Of a DNA stretch of 64,000 nt, positions 5,738-16,440 are shown piece after piece. Every line of letters begins with the position of its first letter. Position 1 is the first letter of the stretch. The DNA comes from an uncultured bacterium (GTDB taxonomy: Bacteria; Eisenbacteria; RBG-16-71-46; CAIMUX01; WJJG01). Below the pieces are notes generated by a model that ran no database searches, had not been told where the DNA came from, and saw only the letters and a program-made list of their open reading frames with translations. Location of the stretch: contig CAZTDY010000005.1 of the NCBI GenBank assembly GCA_964612295.1, positions 70,666 through 134,665 of the forward strand, given 5' to 3'. The translations under genes and the position numbers were made by a program.

Positions 5738-7687
5738 ATGAAGGCGAGAGCCGCCACGATCAGCCTGTTCCTTCTGGTCATCCTGGGAGCACCGACGAGC
5801 GCCCGGGCCGACCTCGCGCCCCTCCTCGAACCGGATGAGGTGCGCGCGCTGGTTGCCGAGCACGCCGCCGCCGAATTCCCCGAGGAGGATGCCGTCGTTC
5901 TCTTCATGGGCGAGCGCGTGCGTCTGGAGCCGGACGGGTCGATCGCCCGCCGGACCCAACGGATCGTCCTCTTGCAGACCGAGCGGGCCATCGGCGCGCT
6001 CGGCGACCCCCGGGTGACCTTCAATCGGCGTCATCAGGAACTGCTGATCCACCGCTGCCGAACGTACGTCCCGGGAGGGATCGAGGTGGATGCCACCGAT
6101 CACGCCTTCAACCCCGTGACCCCGGATGCCGTCGCGCGTTGCCCGGATCGGATGTTCCATCAAGACATGGTGATCACCCATGTCGGCATCGAACGCGGTT
6201 GCGTGATCGAACTCGACACCGAGATTCGGGACCTGAAGCCCCATCAGGCCTGGCTCGAGGGGGAGGTCTTTCTCCACGAGCCGTACCCGGTTCTGGATCG
6301 GTTCCTGGAGATCGAGACGCCCGATCACGTCACGTTGCACTATGAGCTTTCGCGCCTGCAGGGCGGCCCGGAGCTGCATCAGGAACAGGGGCGGGCCCAT
6401 CACATCTGGCACTTCGGCCTCCTGCCGGGGGTCCGTGAGTCGGACGACGGTTACGGCGGACGATTGGCCCGCGGCCGGCTGCTCTACAGCACCTGCCCCA
6501 GCTGGGAGTATCTGGCCCGGCGAACGTGGGAACAGATCGACTCGGCCGCCCAACCCGACACGTTGATGGCCACGTTTGTGAACTCGGCCGAGCTCAAAGG
6601 GGCCGGCGAACTGGAACAGGCCCGGGAGATCCTGAGCGTCCTCTCCTCTCAGACGAGGCGGGCCAACGTTCGGCCGTTTGCCGGGCTCCCGAATCCCCGC
6701 AGTGCCGCGGAGACGTTCGTGTTTCGATGTGGCGATCCATGGGATCGGACCAGTCTTGCGATCGCCGCGCTTGGAATGGTCGATCTCGGCGTGGTCACGA
6801 CGCTGCGCGCCAATGCACGCGACGTCAAGAAAGGCGTGCCCATGATGGGCCAGTTCTCCGAGGTCTGGTTGCAGGCCCAGGTTGATGGGGAAACCGTGCT
6901 CTTGGACCCGGTGAGCGGCCACCTCGAGTCGCCGGTCTCCGTCGCGCGGCCCTTCCTGATTCTGGGTGAACGGGGGCTCGAATGGCGCGAGGAATCGGCC
7001 GGGCAGGGCCTGAGCCGACTGTGGGTCGACCTGGCGATGGAATCGGGAGGTGCGGTTGCCGGCCACGTCGACTTGCGGCTCGAAGGCGTCCAGTGGCGCT
7101 GGTCCGACCACGACGGCCCGGGCGACTTGGCCGATGAGGTTGCGGCCCAGATTCTCCCGGGATCCACGCGCGGTGAAGTGGATGTTCGCTGGTTTGGTCC
7201 CGATCGATGCGACCTCCGGTTCGAGGTTGAAGCGCCCTCGCTCGGCGAGCGTGACGGCTCGCGCACCTACGTGCGCCTTCCGGCTCCGCCGGCCGGGATT
7301 GCCGAGGCCATCGGTGGATACGGTCTCGATCGGACAGCGCGAAGCAGCCCGCTTTTCCTACCTGCTCCGATGGAGGAGGTGGTGAAGTGGCGTCTCCGTC
7401 TGCCCGAGGGGATCGAACCGGTCTACCTGCCCGCGGCGGCGGATGAGGACACCCGCGCTGCCCGTTTCGCCATGACGATTGAACGGATAGCGCGTCCCGC
7501 CGACGCGTGGTCGCGCCCGGATGAACGCGAGGCGCGCGGGGAGGAGATTCAAGTCAACTGGACCGCCGGCCTTCCCATGGCCGAGATTCCTCCGGCGCGG
7601 TACCTGGAGCTGAAGAAGGTGATCGGGCGGTATCAAGCTGAGAACCAGCGGCTTCTGATCCTGGGGGGATGGCCCGAGGGGGACTAG
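5738..7687 (+). CDS. DUF3857/transglutaminase-like paralog, probably catalytically degenerate, secreted
   Basis: Start MKARAATISLFLLVILGAPTSARA (signal peptide) at 5738, 24 nt after the upstream stop. It retains the Cys box (FRCGDPWDRTSLAIAAL) but the His position is altered (FSEVWLQAQVDGETVLLDP). It sits in tandem with the 3672 gene. Confidence 0.65.
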   Translation: MKARAATISLFLLVILGAPTSARADLAPLLEPDEVRALVAEHAAAEFPEEDAVVLFMGERVRLEPDGSIARRTQRIVLLQTERAIGALGDPRVTFNRRHQELLIHRCRTYVPGGIEVDATDHAFNPVTPDAVARCPDRMFHQDMVITHVGIERGCVIELDTEIRDLKPHQAWLEGEVFLHEPYPVLDRFLEIETPDHVTLHYELSRLQGGPELHQEQGRAHHIWHFGLLPGVRESDDGYGGRLARGRLLYSTCPSWEYLARRTWEQIDSAAQPDTLMATFVNSAELKGAGELEQAREILSVLSSQTRRANVRPFAGLPNPRSAAETFVFRCGDPWDRTSLAIAALGMVDLGVVTTLRANARDVKKGVPMMGQFSEVWLQAQVDGETVLLDPVSGHLESPVSVARPFLILGERGLEWREESAGQGLSRLWVDLAMESGGAVAGHVDLRLEGVQWRWSDHDGPGDLADEVAAQILPGSTRGEVDVRWFGPDRCDLRFEVEAPSLGERDGSRTYVRLPAPPAGIAEAIGGYGLDRTARSSPLFLPAPMEEVVKWRLRLPEGIEPVYLPAAADEDTRAARFAMTIERIARPADAWSRPDEREARGEEIQVNWTAGLPMAEIPPARYLELKKVIGRYQAENQRLLILGGWPEGD

Positions 7688-7690
7688 CCG

Positions 7691-9676
7691 CTACTCGATA
7701 TACCCCAGGCTCTTCAGCCGTTGCAGCTGACGGTCGTCCAGCTGCAACGATCCGTCTTCCCCGCTTCGGAGAACGGCCTCCTGAATATCCCGCGCCGCGG
7801 CCAGCTCCAGGCGCAGGATCTCCCGGAACTGGGCAAGGCAGGCCGGTTCCTCGGCCGGGAGGAGATTGTGCTCTTCTCCCGGATCGGCGGCCAGGTCATA
7901 GAGGTGCTCGGCGGCGGGATCGATCACCGCTCGGGTTTCTTTGCCGGTCGAGCAGATGTACTTCCAGTGCTCGGTCCGAATGCTGGTGGCGTGTACGGCG
8001 AATCCCATGCTGCGCGGATGGAGGATCTGAGCCGGCGTTGCCGCCGAGTCCGCTTCCTCGCCGCCGAAACCCAGGAACGGGGTAAGGCTCCTTCCCTGGA
8101 GGATGCCGGTCTTCTCCAGGCCGGCCAGATCGAGCACGGTGGGTACGAGGTCGACGAGCTGAACCAACTCCGCGCTCTTCGCCGCACTCTCCTGTTCGGG
8201 CAGCCGGATGAGCAGGGGCACGTGGAGCGACTCATCGTAGAGATCCAGATGGAGAGGCTTGCCGTGCTCGAAGAACTCCTCGCCGTGATCGGAGGTCAAG
8301 ATCACCACCGTGTTGGTTGAGAGATTCAGCGCCTCGAGCGTGTCGAACAGGCCGCCCAGAGCATCGTCCGCATAGGCGATCCCGCCATCGTAGTACGAGA
8401 TCACGTCTTCCAGGTCAGCCGCGGCCATGGGCGTGTCCACGTTGCCGAACCCATAGTCGCGGAGGAGTTCCGAGGCGCAGTGGCCGTTGGGTCCACAACC
8501 CGAGAACCGCGCCCGGGGCGGGTCGCTCAGAAACTCCGTCTGGAAAGGGGCGGGCTCCTCGTAGGGGAGCCGGTGGATATCGGAGTGGATGTCGAAGAGG
8601 TGCAGGAACAGGAAGAAGGTTGTCTCCTGGTGCCAGGTGAGCCACTTGAGAGCCTGGGCGATCTGGGGCTTTGCCGTACCGGTCTTGTGATGGACATAGG
8701 ACCAGCGGACTTTGTCACCGGTGCGCAAGAGCAGACCCCGTAGGAGCGGATGCGGATAGGGAGGATGGACGTAGTCCGCGAAACCCTGGGCGAATCCTCG
8801 GCGTTTTCCGATGTAGGAGGAGGCATCGCCGCCGACAAAGGCCCCGGCGCGATAGCCGTCCCCCTCCAATCGTTCGGCCAGGGTCGTGAATTGGGGGCTC
8901 AGGCGACTGCGATCCGCAACCAGGGCGAGGGCGAGGGGCGAGACACCGGTGAGCATCGAGGCGTGGGACGGCAAGGTCCAATGCGATTGAGCATACGCGT
9001 TCTCAAAGAGCGTTGCCCCTTGTGCCCAGCGGTCGATCACCGGCGAGGTGTCTTGCCCGTAGCCATAACATCCCAGGTGATCGGCACGGAGCGTATCGAG
9101 TGAGATCAGGATGATATTCGGCCGAGCCCCGGCCTCCGCGACAGCCGGGCGTTGCCATCCGAGAAAGGTGCCCAACCCGCACGCCACTGCACTCGCCGCC
9201 AGCCAGAGGGGTAGTCGTCGCAGCGCAGGACCCCACCTCCCGGTGGCCGAGGCGCCAAAGCGCTTCGGCAGGAGCCAGAGGATGACTGCGATGCTCAGGC
9301 TGCCCACCGCAATCAAGATCAAGGCCGCCTTCCACGAGACGCCGGGCAGGCTTCCCGCGGGCTGCGCCTCTTCAACCAGAAGGAAGGCGATAGCTCCGAG
9401 CACGCCCCCGCCGAACAGGGCCCGGAACCAACGCACCGCCGCACTGCGCGTCGCCCATCCGAAGAAGCGGGCCACGGGATGAAGAACGAGTACCACGGCC
9501 AGCAGCGCAACCGCATCGAAGGCCATGCTGAGGAGGATCGCGCCGAGGCGCAGCGAAGCATCCCCCGCCACGGCGGGCAGGAGGCGCAGGCTCAAGTAGC
9601 CGTCGATGAAACCGACCCAGAGCCCGATGCAGAGCCAGCTGAGCAGCCACCTCCGAGTCTGTGGGGAAGGAACCAT
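7691..9676 (-). CDS. Alkaline-phosphatase-superfamily (sulfatase-like) membrane hydrolase/transferase, LtaS/EptA-like
   Basis: Start MVPSPQTRRWLLSWL at 9676. The N-terminal region has about 6 TM helices. The periplasmic domain reads IILISLDTLRADHLGCYGY...SHWTLPSHASMLTG, with Thr and His in place of the formylglycine Cys and the Arg of true sulfatases. This favours a phospho-transferase such as LtaS, MdoB or EptA over a sulfatase. Confidence 0.7.
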   Translation of the reverse strand: MVPSPQTRRWLLSWLCIGLWVGFIDGYLSLRLLPAVAGDASLRLGAILLSMAFDAVALLAVVLVLHPVARFFGWATRSAAVRWFRALFGGGVLGAIAFLLVEEAQPAGSLPGVSWKAALILIAVGSLSIAVILWLLPKRFGASATGRWGPALRRLPLWLAASAVACGLGTFLGWQRPAVAEAGARPNIILISLDTLRADHLGCYGYGQDTSPVIDRWAQGATLFENAYAQSHWTLPSHASMLTGVSPLALALVADRSRLSPQFTTLAERLEGDGYRAGAFVGGDASSYIGKRRGFAQGFADYVHPPYPHPLLRGLLLRTGDKVRWSYVHHKTGTAKPQIAQALKWLTWHQETTFFLFLHLFDIHSDIHRLPYEEPAPFQTEFLSDPPRARFSGCGPNGHCASELLRDYGFGNVDTPMAAADLEDVISYYDGGIAYADDALGGLFDTLEALNLSTNTVVILTSDHGEEFFEHGKPLHLDLYDESLHVPLLIRLPEQESAAKSAELVQLVDLVPTVLDLAGLEKTGILQGRSLTPFLGFGGEEADSAATPAQILHPRSMGFAVHATSIRTEHWKYICSTGKETRAVIDPAAEHLYDLAADPGEEHNLLPAEEPACLAQFREILRLELAAARDIQEAVLRSGEDGSLQLDDRQLQRLKSLGYIE

Positions 9677-9779
9677 GCTCTCAATCCATTCATCCAAGCG
9701 GCATTCCGACGATCTCAAGTGAGCATCGTAGCACGGTAGCGGAGACGGTCCCACATGTCCATGGAGTTGCCCCGGAGGG

Positions 9780-12191: not shown

Positions 12192-13562
12192 TCAGGAGGA
12201 CAACAACCCCAGCCGTTTCAGCTTGCGATAGAGGTTTCCGCGATCCACCCCCAGGTCCTGGGCCAGCTGGGTGATGTTCCCGCCGTGCCCTTCGAGCTGG
12301 CTTCGCAGATAGCCGCGTTCGAACTGCTCGACGGCCCGGGTCAGCCGGTTCTTGCCGTCCTCCGCGGCCGTTTCGCCCCCATTTGGACCCAGACAGGGCC
12401 GCACCTGGGTCGCGTCGATCGAATCGCCGCCGCACGTGTAGTAGAGCCGTTCGATCACGTTGCGCAGCTCGCGGACGTTTCCCGGCCAGGGGTGCGCCAT
12501 CAGAAGATCGAGCGCCTCGGGAGTGATCGCAGGGCAGAGGCCTCCCTCCCGGCGGTGCAGCCCATCACGGAAGTGCTCGGCCAGAGAGGGGATATCCTCA
12601 CGCCGCTCGCGCAGCGGCGGCACGGTCAAGGGGACGGTGTTGATTCGGTAGAGAAGATCCTCTCGAAACTGACCCCCGGCCACCATCTCATCCAAGCGGC
12701 GATGGGTCGCACTCAGCACCCGGACGTCGACCGCGGTCGGACGCTCGCCTCCCACCGGGGTGATTCGCCCGCTCTCCAGGGTGCGCAGAAGCTTCGGCTG
12801 CATGGCGAGGGGCATGTCACCGATCTCATCGAGCAGCAGGGTCCCCCGGTGGGCTTGCGCGAACCGGCCGGGCCGCGATTGGGTGGCTCCCGTGAAAGCG
12901 CCCTTCTCGTGACCGAAGAGCTCGCTCTCGACCAGCTCCGCCGGCATCGCCGAGCAGTTGAGCGTCACCAGGGAGCCTTCCGCCCTCGGGCTCCGAAAGT
13001 GGATCTGGGCGGCCACGTTCTCTTTTCCGGTGCCACTCTCGCCCAGAATGAGAATGCGCACATCGCTCGAGGCAAGTCGTTCGATCTGACCGAGCAGATG
13101 CGCCATCTGCGCGGAGCCGCCCACGAGCGGATAGTCCGCGAGCCGTTTCTCCTGCAGACTGCGATTGCTCTCTTTGAGCCGCGCGATCCGGAGTGCGTTG
13201 CCCACCACGGTCAGGAGCCGCGCTGGTTCGAATGGTTTCTCGAGGAAGTCGGTCGCGCCCCGCTTGATCGAATCCGCGGCCTCCTGGAGCGACGCCGCGC
13301 CGGAGACCATGACGATCTCGGGCGGGTGGGTCTGGGCGCTCAACTCGGCGAGCAGATCGGTTCCTTTCCCGTCGGGCAGCTGAATGTCGAGGAGCAGCAC
13401 GAGCGGGCGGTGGCGGGCCAGCGCTTCCCGGGCGGGGGTGAGGGCTTCGAACTCGGCCAGCGAGTATCCCTCCCGGGTGAGAAGCAGGCGGACCTCCTCC
13501 CGGAAGAGCGCATCGTCGTCGACCAAGTAGATGTCAGCCGGTGGCGTCGTCATCCGCGGCAT
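12192..13562 (-). CDS. Sigma-54-dependent response regulator (NtrC family: REC-AAA+-HTH)
   Basis: Receiver domain (DIYLVDDDALFREEV...LLLDIQLPDGKGTDLL), AAA+ with a Walker A (ILGESGTGKE), the GAFTGA-like ESELFGHEKGAFTGA box that defines sigma-54 enhancer-binding proteins, and a C-terminal Fis-type HTH (ITQLAQDLGVDRGNLYRKLKRLGL). Confidence 0.9.
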   Translation of the reverse strand: MPRMTTPPADIYLVDDDALFREEVRLLLTREGYSLAEFEALTPAREALARHRPLVLLLDIQLPDGKGTDLLAELSAQTHPPEIVMVSGAASLQEAADSIKRGATDFLEKPFEPARLLTVVGNALRIARLKESNRSLQEKRLADYPLVGGSAQMAHLLGQIERLASSDVRILILGESGTGKENVAAQIHFRSPRAEGSLVTLNCSAMPAELVESELFGHEKGAFTGATQSRPGRFAQAHRGTLLLDEIGDMPLAMQPKLLRTLESGRITPVGGERPTAVDVRVLSATHRRLDEMVAGGQFREDLLYRINTVPLTVPPLRERREDIPSLAEHFRDGLHRREGGLCPAITPEALDLLMAHPWPGNVRELRNVIERLYYTCGGDSIDATQVRPCLGPNGGETAAEDGKNRLTRAVEQFERGYLRSQLEGHGGNITQLAQDLGVDRGNLYRKLKRLGLLSS

Positions 13563-14457
13563 TCCAATCCAGGCTGAAGGTTGTTCCCGTGTTTCCCGTC
13601 CGGTAGGCGATCCTACCCCCCAGTGATCCGACGATCTTCTTCACAATCGCCAGCCCAAGTCCGGAGCCGGACGGCTTGGTCGTGACGTAGGGGTCGAAGA
13701 GCCGCTGCTCGATCTCGGGCGGGATCCCCGGACCGTCATCGCGCACCTCGATCCGCACGCCTACGCCGGTGGCGGCGGTGGCGATCGCTACCCGGCCATC
13801 GGGTCCGGCGGCCTCCCGGGCATTCTTGAGGAGGTTCACCAGGGCCTCCCTCAGCATATAGGGGTCGATGGAAATGGGGGGCAGGCCCGGCGCCAGCTCC
13901 ATGTCGATCCCGGCCGCGGGAGCGAAACTCTCACTTAGCCGTACGGCCTGCTGCACGATCGAGTTCGGTTCGGCGGGCAGAGGTTGAATGTCGATCGGCC
14001 GGCCGAAGAGGGAGAAATCGCGTGCGATTCGCTCCAGACGATCCAACTCCGAGCGCACCGTCTCCAGCGGCTTGCCCGCCGCGGAGTTCTGCTCGTCCGG
14101 TTGGGCCTGCTCGGGCAGGCGCGCGAGGGCGAGTTTGACCGGCGCCAGAGTGTTCTTGATCCCGTGGGCGATCGTGCGGGCGGTCTGCTGCCAGGCGGCC
14201 GTACGCTCGGCCTCGACGAGCCGCTCGGTGGCCTCGGCCAGGCGCGTCGACATTCGGTTGAAGCCGTCCACCAGGGCACCGACCTCATCTTTCCGCCGGT
14301 AGGGAAGGCGGACGTCCCACTGGCCCGGTCCCACAGACTCGGCCAGACGTTCCAGGTCCGCCAGGGGGCGGGTGAGGCTCCGCGCGGTGAACTGGCTCAC
14401 CATCAGGATGACGAGCAGGTACAGCAGGTTGGCCAGACCCCAGAGGAGCCGCAGCAT
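13534..14457 (-). CDS. Sensor histidine kinase core (TM-HAMP-HisKA-HATPase), lacking its periplasmic sensor region
   Basis: A single TM (LWGLANLLYLLVILMVSQF), an H-box (TIAHGIKNTLAPVKL), and N/G boxes (NLLKNAREA...GSGLGLAIVKKIVGSLGGRIA). It overlaps the regulator gene by 29 nt. The N-terminal sensor part appears displaced into the 14533..15348 ORF. Confidence 0.8.
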   Translation of the reverse strand: MLRLLWGLANLLYLLVILMVSQFTARSLTRPLADLERLAESVGPGQWDVRLPYRRKDEVGALVDGFNRMSTRLAEATERLVEAERTAAWQQTARTIAHGIKNTLAPVKLALARLPEQAQPDEQNSAAGKPLETVRSELDRLERIARDFSLFGRPIDIQPLPAEPNSIVQQAVRLSESFAPAAGIDMELAPGLPPISIDPYMLREALVNLLKNAREAAGPDGRVAIATAATGVGVRIEVRDDGPGIPPEIEQRLFDPYVTTKPSGSGLGLAIVKKIVGSLGGRIAYRTGNTGTTFSLDWNAADDDATG

Positions 14458-14490
14458 CCGGCGTCCTCCGCCCCTCAGGACCAGCTTCAG

Positions 14491-14890
14491 TGTAAGTACT
14501 CGCCGTACCCCGTTACGGTCGATTCAGGCGGATCAACTCATCAAGTCTGAAGGCAGGGTCACCGTTCCGGGCTTCTTGAGTGCGGCATAGGCGGCTTCTC
14601 GTAGGTACGCTTTCGGTTCCACGCGGCAGAGCTTCGCCGATTCCAATAGGCTGTAGAACAACGCCGCCACCTCGGTTCCGCGCTTCGATCGCGAACCATA
14701 GTGATTCTTTCGGCCCAAGACCACTCCGCGCAGCGCTCGTTCAGCCGCGTTGTTGTCCAAAGGGATCCGAGGATCATCCAGGAACGCGATCAACCGGGGC
14801 CACAGCTTCAGTTCTTCGAACCGCTGCAAGTGGAAGGCCAGCTCCTCGAGCAACCGGCCTTGGTCGACCGGCAGCCAACAGCCTGTGACC
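14491..14890 (-). mobile_element. IS66-family insertion sequence remnant (3' end of tnpC plus terminal inverted-repeat-like end)
   Basis: The transposase C-terminal coding fragment is followed at 14491 by TGTAAGTACTCGCC, which resembles the GTAAGCG… termini of IS66-family IRs. No tnpA or tnpB is present, so it is a degraded remnant. The inner boundary is approximate. Confidence 0.5.
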
Positions 14891-15348
14891 AGCAGATGGG
14901 TCTGTGACCAGCGGAGGGCGTAGGCCAGGACGCGCTCCTCGATAGACATCCAGCCTGAGCGGCTTCCGCTCAGCGGCGAGTCGGTGGGCGATGTTTCCCC
15001 CAACGCGAGCAGCCGGCTTCGGATGAAATCGGGCGAGAGATCTCCCTCGCCCGCGCTGGTGGTGTCCTCCCCGGTGACGAGGACCGCGATATCGAGCCCG
15101 TGGGCGAGATACTGCTCGGCGCTTGCGTAGATCGGGGAGGCGGGGGTGAGCTCCAGCGTCTTGCCGGCATAGGCTTCGAGGGTCCCATCGGCCAGGGCGT
15201 GGGCGTCGAGGAGCGCCTCCTCGATGCCGGGCGAGGCGATCCGCTCCAGGCTCCCGATCCCCAACTCCAGGCTCAGGTAGGACAATCCCGCCACGGGCAG
15301 GAAGGCAAAGAGGAAAAACGCGAGAAAGAGCCGGGTTTTGAGTCTCAT
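14533..15348 (-). pseudogene. Chimeric ORF: N-terminal fragment of the sensor kinase (TM1 + periplasmic region) fused to the C-terminal ~115 aa of an IS66-family transposase
   Basis: Residues ~1-150 form a signal/TM helix and a periplasmic-like domain. From ~WSQTHLLVTGCWLPVDQGRLLEEL onward the sequence HLQRFEELKLWPRLIAFLDDPRIPLDNNAAERALRGVVLGRKNHYGSRSKRGTEVAALFYSLLESAKLCRVEPKAYLREA matches the conserved IS66 TnpC C-terminus (…DNNxxERxxRxxxxGRKNxxFxxSxxGxxxxAxxYSLxxTxKLNGVxPxxYL…). Confidence 0.6.
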
Positions 15349-15457
15349 CCTGCCTCGCCTGGGCGCCCTTTTCGAGGGTCACCGACCTACACGCGCAAAC
15401 CCCGCCGCCTTGCAGGGAGAGGCCTATACTGAGGACTGATTTCCGGGAGGAAAGATG

Positions 15458-15531
15458 TGGCGGCGCAGGGACTCGAACCCCGGACACGCGGATTATGATT
15501 CCGCTGCTCTAACCAACTGAGCTACGCCGCC
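15458..15531 (-). tRNA. tRNA-Met (anticodon CAU; elongator type or tRNA-Ile2 lysidine type)
   Basis: The reverse complement GGCGGCGUAGCUCAGUUGGUUAGAGCAGCGGAAUCAUAAUCCGCGUGUCCGGGGUUCGAGUCCCUGCGCCGCCA folds as a cloverleaf: 7-bp acceptor stem, D-arm AGCUCAGUUGGUUAGAGC, anticodon stem GCGGA/UCCGC with loop AUCAUAA, and T-arm GGUUCGAGUCC. G1-C72 is paired, so it is not an initiator. CCA is not encoded. Confidence 0.85.
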
Positions 15532-15620: not shown

Positions 15621-15650
15621 TTGACAGAGGTTTGGCCAGCCGGATATAGT
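15621..15650 (+). promoter_or_regulatory. Sigma-70-like promoter (TTGACA-N18-TATAGT) upstream of the OMP beta-barrel gene
   Basis: TTGACA at 15621-15626 and TATAGT at 15645-15650, about 120 nt upstream of the 15769 start. Confidence 0.4.
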
Positions 15651-15768: not shown

Positions 15769-16440
15769 ATGAAGAAGCTGAGTCTTCTGGTGGGGTGTCT
15801 ATTGGCCCTGGTGCTTCCTGGTTCGAGCCAGGCGGGCATCAGCCCCGATCTCAACGGCTTAGGCAGTTTCGGCATTAGCGTCGGCGCGATGCGCTGGTTC
15901 GCGGACGGGGATGCCAGCGAGTGGGAAGGCCATGCCGCGCAGATCCGGCCGATCGGGAAGGCCGTCTTCCGCTATCGGTGGAGCTCGACCTGGGCCGCCG
16001 CCGTCGAAGCCGGATTCGGCTGGAACAGCTATGCGGAAAGCGACGACCTCGTAACCTGGGTCATTCCACTCACGCTCGGTTTCGAGCGCCATATCGGGGA
16101 ATACTGGGGAGCCTCGACGTCGGTCAATTTCGGTTCCGGCATGTTCGTGTGGGGTCGGCGCCGCGGCGGGAACTTCCTTCACGATGAAATCACTCAGAAG
16201 AAGTATCACGCCACCGATCCGGGTCTGTTTGTCGGGCTGATCGGGGAGTACCACCTGGACGAGCACGTCACGATCACCAATCAGTTGACCGCGACCTACA
16301 TCTATTCTCTCCACAGCGACGACTTCAAGGCTGCGCTCGGCGGCGACGACCTGTTCGTCGATCTGCGGATAGGCATCAACTACTACTTCTCGACGCGCGA
16401 GGGGCTCATCGTCCGGGAGGGGGGGGGCGAAGGTCGATGA
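15769..16440 (+). CDS. Outer-membrane beta-barrel protein (OmpA-like/OmpW-like small porin family)
   Basis: Signal peptide MKKLSLLVGCLLALVLPGSSQA. Alternating amphipathic beta-strand pattern rich in aromatic residues, with a terminal aromatic region (…INYYFSTREGLIV). Confidence 0.6.
   Translation: MKKLSLLVGCLLALVLPGSSQAGISPDLNGLGSFGISVGAMRWFADGDASEWEGHAAQIRPIGKAVFRYRWSSTWAAAVEAGFGWNSYAESDDLVTWVIPLTLGFERHIGEYWGASTSVNFGSGMFVWGRRRGGNFLHDEITQKKYHATDPGLFVGLIGEYHLDEHVTITNQLTATYIYSLHSDDFKAALGGDDLFVDLRIGINYYFSTREGLIVREGGGEGR

Follow-up and report, generated by a model that had tools for sequence, protein, structure and literature searches.

The question raised by this locus is how the tail of a transposase came to be joined in frame to the sensor half of a histidine kinase (HK), and what became of the kinase and of the rest of the transposable element. 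The window, i.e., the whole stretch of DNA that was analysed, comprises 64 kb of one contig from an uncultured bacterium. On its minus strand a tRNA-Met gene is followed by a 271-aa open reading frame (ORF), a 75-nt gap, a 307-aa ORF and a 456-aa ORF (Table 1), with the stop of the 307-aa ORF overlapping the regulator start by 29 nt. In the 307-aa product a hydrophobic helix precedes Pfam matches to HAMP (PF00672, residues 23-74), HisKA (PF00512, residues 89-153; 22.8 bits, under its cut-off of 26.9) and HATPase_c (PF02518, residues 198-297), and its H-box, IAHGIKN, is conserved in the orthologue alignment. This agrees with the original prediction that the core ORF (13534..14457) starts with TM2 and HAMP. 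The 456-aa product carries complete receiver, Sigma54_activat, AAA_lid and HTH_8 domains (Pfam/NCBIfam), so the partner NtrC-type response regulator (RR) is intact, as had also been predicted. Sensor domain and transmitter are not in one polypeptide here, being divided between the 271-aa and 307-aa ORFs that the insert splits.

Table 1. Coordinates in the window of the disrupted kinase gene, the insert and their neighbours.
Feature	Coordinates	Strand	Remarks
tRNA-Met (CAT)	15457-15531	-	ancestral synteny, outside the insertion event; also in sister loci L025 and L029
Chimeric ORF, 271 aa	14533..15348	-	kinase N-part plus IS66 TnpC tail
Kinase 5' part, codons 1-181 plus one base	14805..15348	-	TM1 and periplasmic sensor domain; holds the left duplication copy
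Left 8-bp target-site duplication copy	14805..14812	.	minus strand ACTGAAGC
IS66-family right-end remnant, 313 bp	14492..14804	-	89 tnpC codons plus stop, 3' untranslated stretch, right inverted repeat (IR)
tnpC tail coding part, last 89 codons plus stop	14533-14802	-	
Right terminal inverted repeat	14492..14520	.	plus strand, tip inward: GTAAGTACTCGCCGTACCCCGTTACGGTC
Right 8-bp target-site duplication copy	14484..14491	.	ACTGAAGC on the minus strand
Kinase 3' part	13534..14491	-	frame open from the IS tip; annotated ORF from ATG 14457
GGAGGA, Shine-Dalgarno-like	14464..14469	-	6 nt upstream of the core ATG, inside former coding sequence
Sigma-54-dependent response regulator, 456 aa, intact	12192..13562	-	kinase partner

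The 271-aa product is a chimera of a kinase N-terminal part and an IS66 TnpC C-terminus, as first proposed. Its residues 180-252 correspond to positions 311-383 of the 387-position NF033517 model (NCBIfam, E 4e-24), and residues 180-226 match PF03050 (Pfam, E 4e-13; 49.9 bits against a curated cut-off of 23.1). The NF033517 score lies under the full-length cut-off of 180, with only the C-terminal 73-89 TnpC residues present, and no Pfam or NCBIfam match was found in the product outside residues 180-252. When the N-terminal part was concatenated with the core into one query, the matches were full-length kinases, 483-534 aa long (45-54% identity, 97-100% query coverage). Residues 1-182 are kinase, colinear with the intact orthologues P0002 and P0241, and the chimera tracks intact kinases in the alignment to ...FHLQRFEELKL; where the orthologues carry on, the frame upstream of the core ORF reads VLRGGGRRMLRLLW... 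The transposase part is residues 183-271 (WPRLIAFLDDPRIPLDNN...), the last 89 residues of TnpC. Alignment of the products to orthologous kinases thus places the insertion point at residue 182/183. The two-part make-up that was first described stands, but the boundary of ~150/~115 aa given with it does not, since residues 150-182 align with kinase and the division is 182/89. The 271-aa and 307-aa ORFs share a frame because the inserted segment and the duplication together measure 313 + 8 = 321 bp, a multiple of three; kinase residues 1-182 are therefore read into the TnpC tail to give the chimera.

The uninterrupted form of the gene is preserved in a sister lineage. The 90%-identity cluster of the core protein includes an intact 498-aa member, P0241, encoded on 16 sister-lineage contigs (loci L025-L032) with the gene order seen in the window. 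Across the insertion point P0241 reads ...FHLQRFEELKLVMRGGGRRMLRLLW..., and the sister loci hold ...GAAGAACTGAAGCTGGTC... in single copy in an uninterrupted kinase gene; the empty-site junction has the form ...GAACTGAAGCTGGTCCTGAGG... In a blastn comparison, L025 aligns with the window in two blocks, at 88% identity down to 14803 and at 85% from 14491 onward, which overlap by exactly the 10 bp ACTGAAGCTG, a sequence present once in L025 (TTCGAAGAACTGAAGCTGGTCATG). With 14492-14812 deleted, the window has a single ORF of 497 codons, which can be aligned over its whole length with six orthologues (a gap of at most one residue near the junction), and the architecture TM1-periplasmic-TM2-HAMP-DHp-CA is restored. 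No kinase sequence was lost; this is a simple insertion ten codons upstream of TM2. Junctions and orthologue alignment agree with the original prediction that an IS66 element inserted between TM1/sensor and TM2 and that most of it has since gone. The possibility that orthologous kinases naturally have the chimeric arrangement had been raised as well; no orthologue examined carries a TnpC tail.

The surroundings of the kinase gene are conserved further afield. The HK-RR-Omp85-DUF4390 block downstream is kept in more distant orthologous loci, and among named kinases the nearest homologue comes from a Candidatus Zixiibacteriota metagenome-assembled genome (MAG; 45% identity). One further difference from the sister lineage was noted: about 2.1 kb of the window (7675-9778), with a 661-aa sulfatase gene (ORF about 7691-9676, minus strand), has no counterpart in L025. 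This segment sits between a DUF4390-like ORF and a DUF3857 gene and is a lineage indel whose direction could be either way; the adjoining ORF is 177 aa in the window, against a 231-aa DUF4390 protein in the sister.

The ends of the insert identify it. In the 64-kb window the 10-mer CAGCTTCAGT (plus strand) occurs only at 14482-14491 and 14803-14812, at a spacing of 321 bp. The 8-bp duplication ACTGAAGC is perfect, and the adjoining 14803-14804 (CA on the plus strand) also repeats, giving a 10-bp direct repeat. Just inside the lower copy the plus strand reads GTAAGTACTCGCCGTACCCC from 14492, and it is here that the IS66-type terminus GTAAGTACTCGCC starts. Two IS copies on other metagenome contigs (L001, L002) have 94-95% nucleotide identity to the window over 14492-14811, diverge from it directly beyond ...GAGTACTTAC and share another flank; the right tip of the element is therefore fixed at 14492. 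The same comparison corrects the coordinate of 14491 that had been given for a GTAAG-type IS66 terminus, the terminus itself having been rightly recognised. Furthermore, the first 13 nt of the remnant equal the left IR, GTAAGTACTCGCC, of a full-length relative (at L016:898). Captured IS66 elements make 8-bp direct repeats (PMC3281130, Table 2). Transposase homology, terminal sequence and length of the duplication all assign the tail to the IS66 family.

With members of this family (tnpA-tnpB-tnpC, DDE TnpC; e.g., ISPpa5a, ISPpa7 and ISKpn15-like) the insert shares the TnpC C-terminus, a GTAAG terminus at the right end and the 8-bp duplication. It differs from them in being a 313-bp right end that lacks tnpA, tnpB, the catalytic part of tnpC and the left repeat, and is thus the remnant of a member rather than an element. 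The left inverted repeat is absent from the window, no inverted repeat links the two ends of the insert, and tblastn found no homology to TnpA, TnpB or the N-terminal part of TnpC anywhere in the 64 kb. With one end only and no transposase, the 313 bp that survive are immobile.

The same ends bear on the idea of a non-autonomous mini-IS66, in which an internal pseudo-left end (GTGG...) and the true right end would have been mobilised in trans with a 9-bp duplication. A perfect direct repeat does flank the fragment, and with a 9-bp duplication its termini would read 5'-GT...AC-3'. However, there is no inverted repeat between the ends, no second copy exists in the 64-kb window and none was recovered from the collections scanned, and this reading gives no reason why the IS, just beyond the supposed end, matches the target at 6/8 positions, which would have to be coincidence; such an origin is very improbable. 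In keeping with this, the paired terminal repeats of a MITE-like or other non-autonomous element were not found, nor were dispersed copies in the window or the scans. A recurrent breakpoint or mini-element was also considered from the many 94-aa ORFs beginning MLGLWPGL...; these proved to be frameshifted or interrupted full-length IS66 copies in which the ORF restarts at that Met, and the idea was rejected.

The left junction is where the insert departs from a complete element. Across the breakpoint, native tnpC in L001, L002, L004 and L007 reads ...TACATGCTGAAGTTGTGGCCC... (...GCG TAC ATG CTG AAG TTG TGG CCC..., AYMLKLWP), whereas the window reads ...GAAGAACTGAAGCTGTGGCCC... (...TTC GAA GAA CTG AAG CTG TGG CCC...). 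The junction lies in an 8/9 microhomology, CTGAAG(C/T)TG, between kinase CTGAAGCTG and tnpC CTGAAGTTG, a match with a probability of about 1-2e-4 in one register. There are no left-repeat bases between the duplication and tnpC, and the left endpoint of the deletion is the left tip of the element. The HK-N/tnpC junction of the window is accordingly defined by CTGAAGCTGTGGCCCC (longer form ...GAACTGAAGCTGTGGCCCC...), and the HK-N/left IR junction of a full-length insertion by GAACTGAAGC followed directly by GTAAGTACTCGCC (longer form ...GAACTGAAGCGTAAGTACTCGCC...).

The favoured explanation, which we regard as highly probable, is a complete IS66 insertion followed by a tip-anchored, microhomology-mediated loss of its left part. 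An IS66-family IS would have transposed into the HAMP kinase gene ten codons upstream of TM2, making the usual 8-bp target duplication of the family (ACTGAAGC). The left ~85-90% of the element, an estimate that assumes a length of ~2.4-2.8 kb by analogy with relatives, would then have been lost, taking with it the left IR, tnpA, tnpB and all of tnpC except the last 89 codons. This loss would span from the exact left tip to a stretch where tnpC and target have CTGAAG(C/T)TG in common, a pattern characteristic of microhomology-mediated joining. The most economical route would be a break at the left tip (e.g., by transposase cleavage or abortive excision), followed by resection and by annealing of CTGAAGC in the flank to the internal CTGAAGT, i.e., microhomology-mediated joining. 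A tip break, resection and microhomology joining together would explain both the endpoint that coincides with the tip and the microhomology between the target and the interior of the IS. Among the contigs there is none on which the kinase site has the left junction of a complete element, and the two-step history is therefore one that we infer, in its order of events as in its kind of break. What the pieces are, where they join, the duplication, the empty site and the lack of decay, by contrast, are directly shown. At the variable position of the microhomology the window has C, and the three relatives known all carry T; a clean, flush 7-nt microhomology would therefore need an unseen variant, or else extension from a mismatched 3' end. 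To our knowledge IS66 transposition chemistry is poorly characterised, and the tip-specific double-strand break is an assumption.

A parallel exists in eukaryotic cut-and-paste transposons, where internal deletions with 6-8 nt, sometimes mismatched, microhomology have been ascribed to abortive gap repair and microhomology-mediated end joining (MMEJ; PMC3814204). Ozma-derived MITEs likewise have 6-8 nt of microhomology with a mismatch at the deletion junction (PMC3814204), which is an analogy and not evidence. They keep both ends and stay mobilisable, in contrast to the remnant in the window, where the deletion runs from the very tip, one end is gone and the DNA is immobile; moreover, the host here is bacterial, and IS66 excision chemistry is not established.

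The deletion could also have come about without transposase, if the left duplication copy of a complete insertion and its internal CTGAAGYTG had taken part in replication slippage or illegitimate recombination; the match to the tip would then be due to chance. Deletions at short repeats are common in bacteria, and a 6-7 nt direct repeat is present at both deletion endpoints. Slippage would account for the microhomology but would leave the tip-coincident endpoint as chance, whereas a mini-element with a pseudo-end would account for the endpoint and not for the microhomology. A rough estimate, which compares the upstream kinase and left IS region with the remainder of an element of ~2.5 kb, predicts several hundred 6-7 nt repeat pairs of this sort, giving the tip pair a low prior. 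The C/T mismatch beside the junction also fits slippage less well. The sequence alone cannot separate slippage from break and repair; we consider slippage unlikely, though a serious contender.

The exact position of the left junction also invites a one-step origin, in which a full copy never stood at this site. Only the right end would have been transferred, by abortive or one-ended transposition or by capture of a broken intermediate, and the other side would have been sealed by annealing of the exposed target overhang (ACTGAAGCTG) to internal tnpC. Such an origin accounts without coincidence both for a left junction exactly at the duplication and for a microhomology that uses target bases past the 8-bp duplication, the full 9-bp CTGAAGCTG being kept with its kinase-type C and the TG after it; the full-length left junction was not found in the contigs or proteins searched. 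However, there is a single example, and break-and-repair deletion of a complete copy explains the same features. An IS66 tail remnant from Acidobacteriota (L014) has no target duplication at its internal breakpoint, and the architecture in the window is therefore not general for IS66 remnants. We know of no one-ended insertion described for IS66, and a one-step origin seems rather improbable. If it were true, bacterial DNA transposons would have a counterpart to the 5'-truncated, duplication-flanked insertions of L1, and IS 'tails' with intact duplications could form in a single step. As a separate observation, the conserved PLDNN...AERALRG motif of the L014 remnant is interrupted by an in-frame insertion of ~50 bp (L014:5160-5215).

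A full-length allele and further copies of the IS were sought in genome and metagenome contigs. Contigs that encode the core protein number 23 and come from many samples; four of them are long and carry the exact chimera. Contigs end at 14622 (L005), exactly at the breakpoint (L006), at 14489 (L008) and at 14521 (L009-L011); most break in or at the edges of the remnant, and the IS is therefore repeated in those communities. These breaks (L005, L006, L008-L011) are also what could be said for an assembly artefact, considered together with a natural or domesticated domain fusion. Against both, the exact 271-aa chimera recurs on four long contigs, all of the 50-200 kb class, a 9-bp microhomology is unable to create a de Bruijn join, no orthologue has the tail, and the sister-lineage gene is uninterrupted, so that either origin is scarcely credible.

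In two contigs (L004, L007) the sequence passes from the kinase core across the remnant and on into further tnpC, to a maximum of 289 TnpC residues. Over 4-7 kb of flank they match the window exactly; the differences are five synonymous single-nucleotide polymorphisms (SNPs) in the first 140 bp of the remnant and the C/T of the microhomology. From their sequence they could be the full-length allele; an assembler walking through another, more abundant IS copy may fit them at least as well. The TnpC tail of the remnant is 100% identical in amino acids to that of L007, without a single non-synonymous difference. It was observed as well that the remnant is mosaic: its right ~170 bp are identical to the L007-type IS, and its left ~140 bp differ at five synonymous sites, four of them matching the L001 type (variant sequences L004:1-440, L006:1-347 and L007:1-945 compared with window 14660-14811). 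The same metagenomes contain at least three sequence variants of the IS; the copies may have recombined, or an assembler consensus may be involved.

Searches for complete alleles gave little. An exact-pattern scan of metagenome contigs with 22 nt of junction-adjacent kinase sequence returned one chance match in an unrelated gene (L012) and no empty-site or full-length allele. A protein search with the N-terminal 181 aa of the kinase found nothing at E<=1e-20 among cluster representatives, that of the chimera being a 29-aa fragment. Genome contigs scanned with the 289 aa of TnpC yielded the distant relatives L013 and L014 only (53-60% identity) and no full IS copy, and the terminal repeat was not found in viral contigs. 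The full-length relative L016 encodes TnpA of 127 aa, TnpB of 130 aa and a frameshifted TnpC of 421+95 aa. The parent transposase is about 31-35% identical to annotated IS66 transposases on plasmids, and near relatives of the parent IS were found on metagenome contigs only; by these comparisons the parent is an undescribed IS66 member.

Several of the loci that came to light have features of their own. In L020 (1-2531 and 3001-3285) an IS66 TnpC tail ORF adjoins three consecutive tyrosine-recombinase (Phage_integrase) genes, an arrangement resembling a recombinase-in-trio element in or beside an IS66 copy. A group II intron-type reverse transcriptase (RVT_1, GIIM) lies beside a scrambled IS66 copy at L019:103-1248, and another group II intron-type reverse transcriptase lies upstream of an orthologous kinase locus at L021:1-221.

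The tRNA-Met gene had been proposed as an integration hotspot, a view that the comparison of loci does not support. It lies 108 nt from the start codon of the chimera, and the insertion point is 645 nt from its 3' end. In the sister loci L025 and L029, whose kinase gene is intact, the same tRNA-Met precedes that gene by ~106 nt; orthologous loci that are more distant lack the tRNA and have different genes upstream. The insertion is not at the tRNA 3' end, where a tRNA-targeted integrative element would be expected, and the element is a DDE-type IS. On this comparative evidence the tRNA-Met is ancestral neighbourhood and irrelevant to the insertion, because it holds the same position beside the intact sister gene. 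On the far side of it, a near-consensus sigma-70 promoter-like site (15621-15650, plus strand; TTGACA-18-TATAGT, 11/12) faces a 223-aa ORF (15769..16440), divergent from the tRNA-Met/kinase side.

The insert-free kinase resembles those of NtrY/NtrX-, AtoS/AtoC- and ZraS/ZraR-like pairs in its architecture and in its adjacent, overlapping NtrC-type regulator gene; unlike NtrY-, AtoS- and ZraS-like kinases, that of the window is split. Among NCBIfam models, the kinase has its best partial matches to AtoS, LIC_11548 and ZraS, and the regulator to NtrX, NtrC and AtoC. All these scores are far under the equivalog cut-offs, and the kinase is therefore not a member of any named system. The pair sits in a conserved HK-RR-Omp85-DUF4390 cluster with the same gene order in orthologous loci.

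Neither kinase half has a stop or a frameshift. Relative to the sister, dN/dS is 0.16 in the N-terminal part and 0.12 in the core (0.04-0.22 in neighbouring genes), with dS to the sister lineage at about 0.49, and loci from different samples are 99.8-100% identical. Since the TnpC tail is that of L007, the kinase halves are undecayed with dN/dS in the range of their neighbours, and the loci are nearly identical, the insertion is, by these sequence comparisons, recent relative to the split from the sister lineage. An intact kinase allele was not seen in the window lineage among the contigs examined.

The core retains its own ATG, TM2, HAMP, H-box and ATP-binding motifs. A GGAGGA lies at 14464-14469 where the same codons in the sister L025 read GGGGGG, and bona fide genes at the locus carry GGAG/GAGG-type motifs upstream of their starts. 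A consensus scan found no promoter or terminator inside the remnant or between the two ORFs. Given the ATG, the GGAGGA and the lack of a terminator-like site between the ORFs, it is possible that the core is translated as a sensor-less kinase, coupled to the overlapping regulator gene. The original prediction of a non-functional or sensor-less kinase is plausible; the chimera, for its part, would consist of a periplasmic domain anchored by TM1, lack TM2 and end in a transposase tail of 89 residues. The GGAGGA arises from two synonymous GGG-to-GGA differences from the sister, which may reflect chance or post-insertion adaptation for re-initiation.

This is an ordinary gene disruption by an IS, with unusually clean junctions and unusually complete documentation, which will not surprise a specialist; the tip-anchored, microhomology-mediated truncation that keeps both duplication copies is its one mildly unusual feature. 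For annotation, the 271-aa ORF should be labelled neither a transposase nor a novel fusion protein; the 307-aa ORF corresponds to the 3' two-thirds of a kinase gene that has been disrupted. For the IS66 family, the locus is a clean natural example in which the empty site, the two junctions and near relatives of the parent can all be compared, and a tip-anchored deletion ending in microhomology hints that IS66 ends can break and be end-joined. For the organism, it may be that the conserved HK-sigma54 RR-Omp85-DUF4390 module operates in this population with its periplasmic sensor missing.
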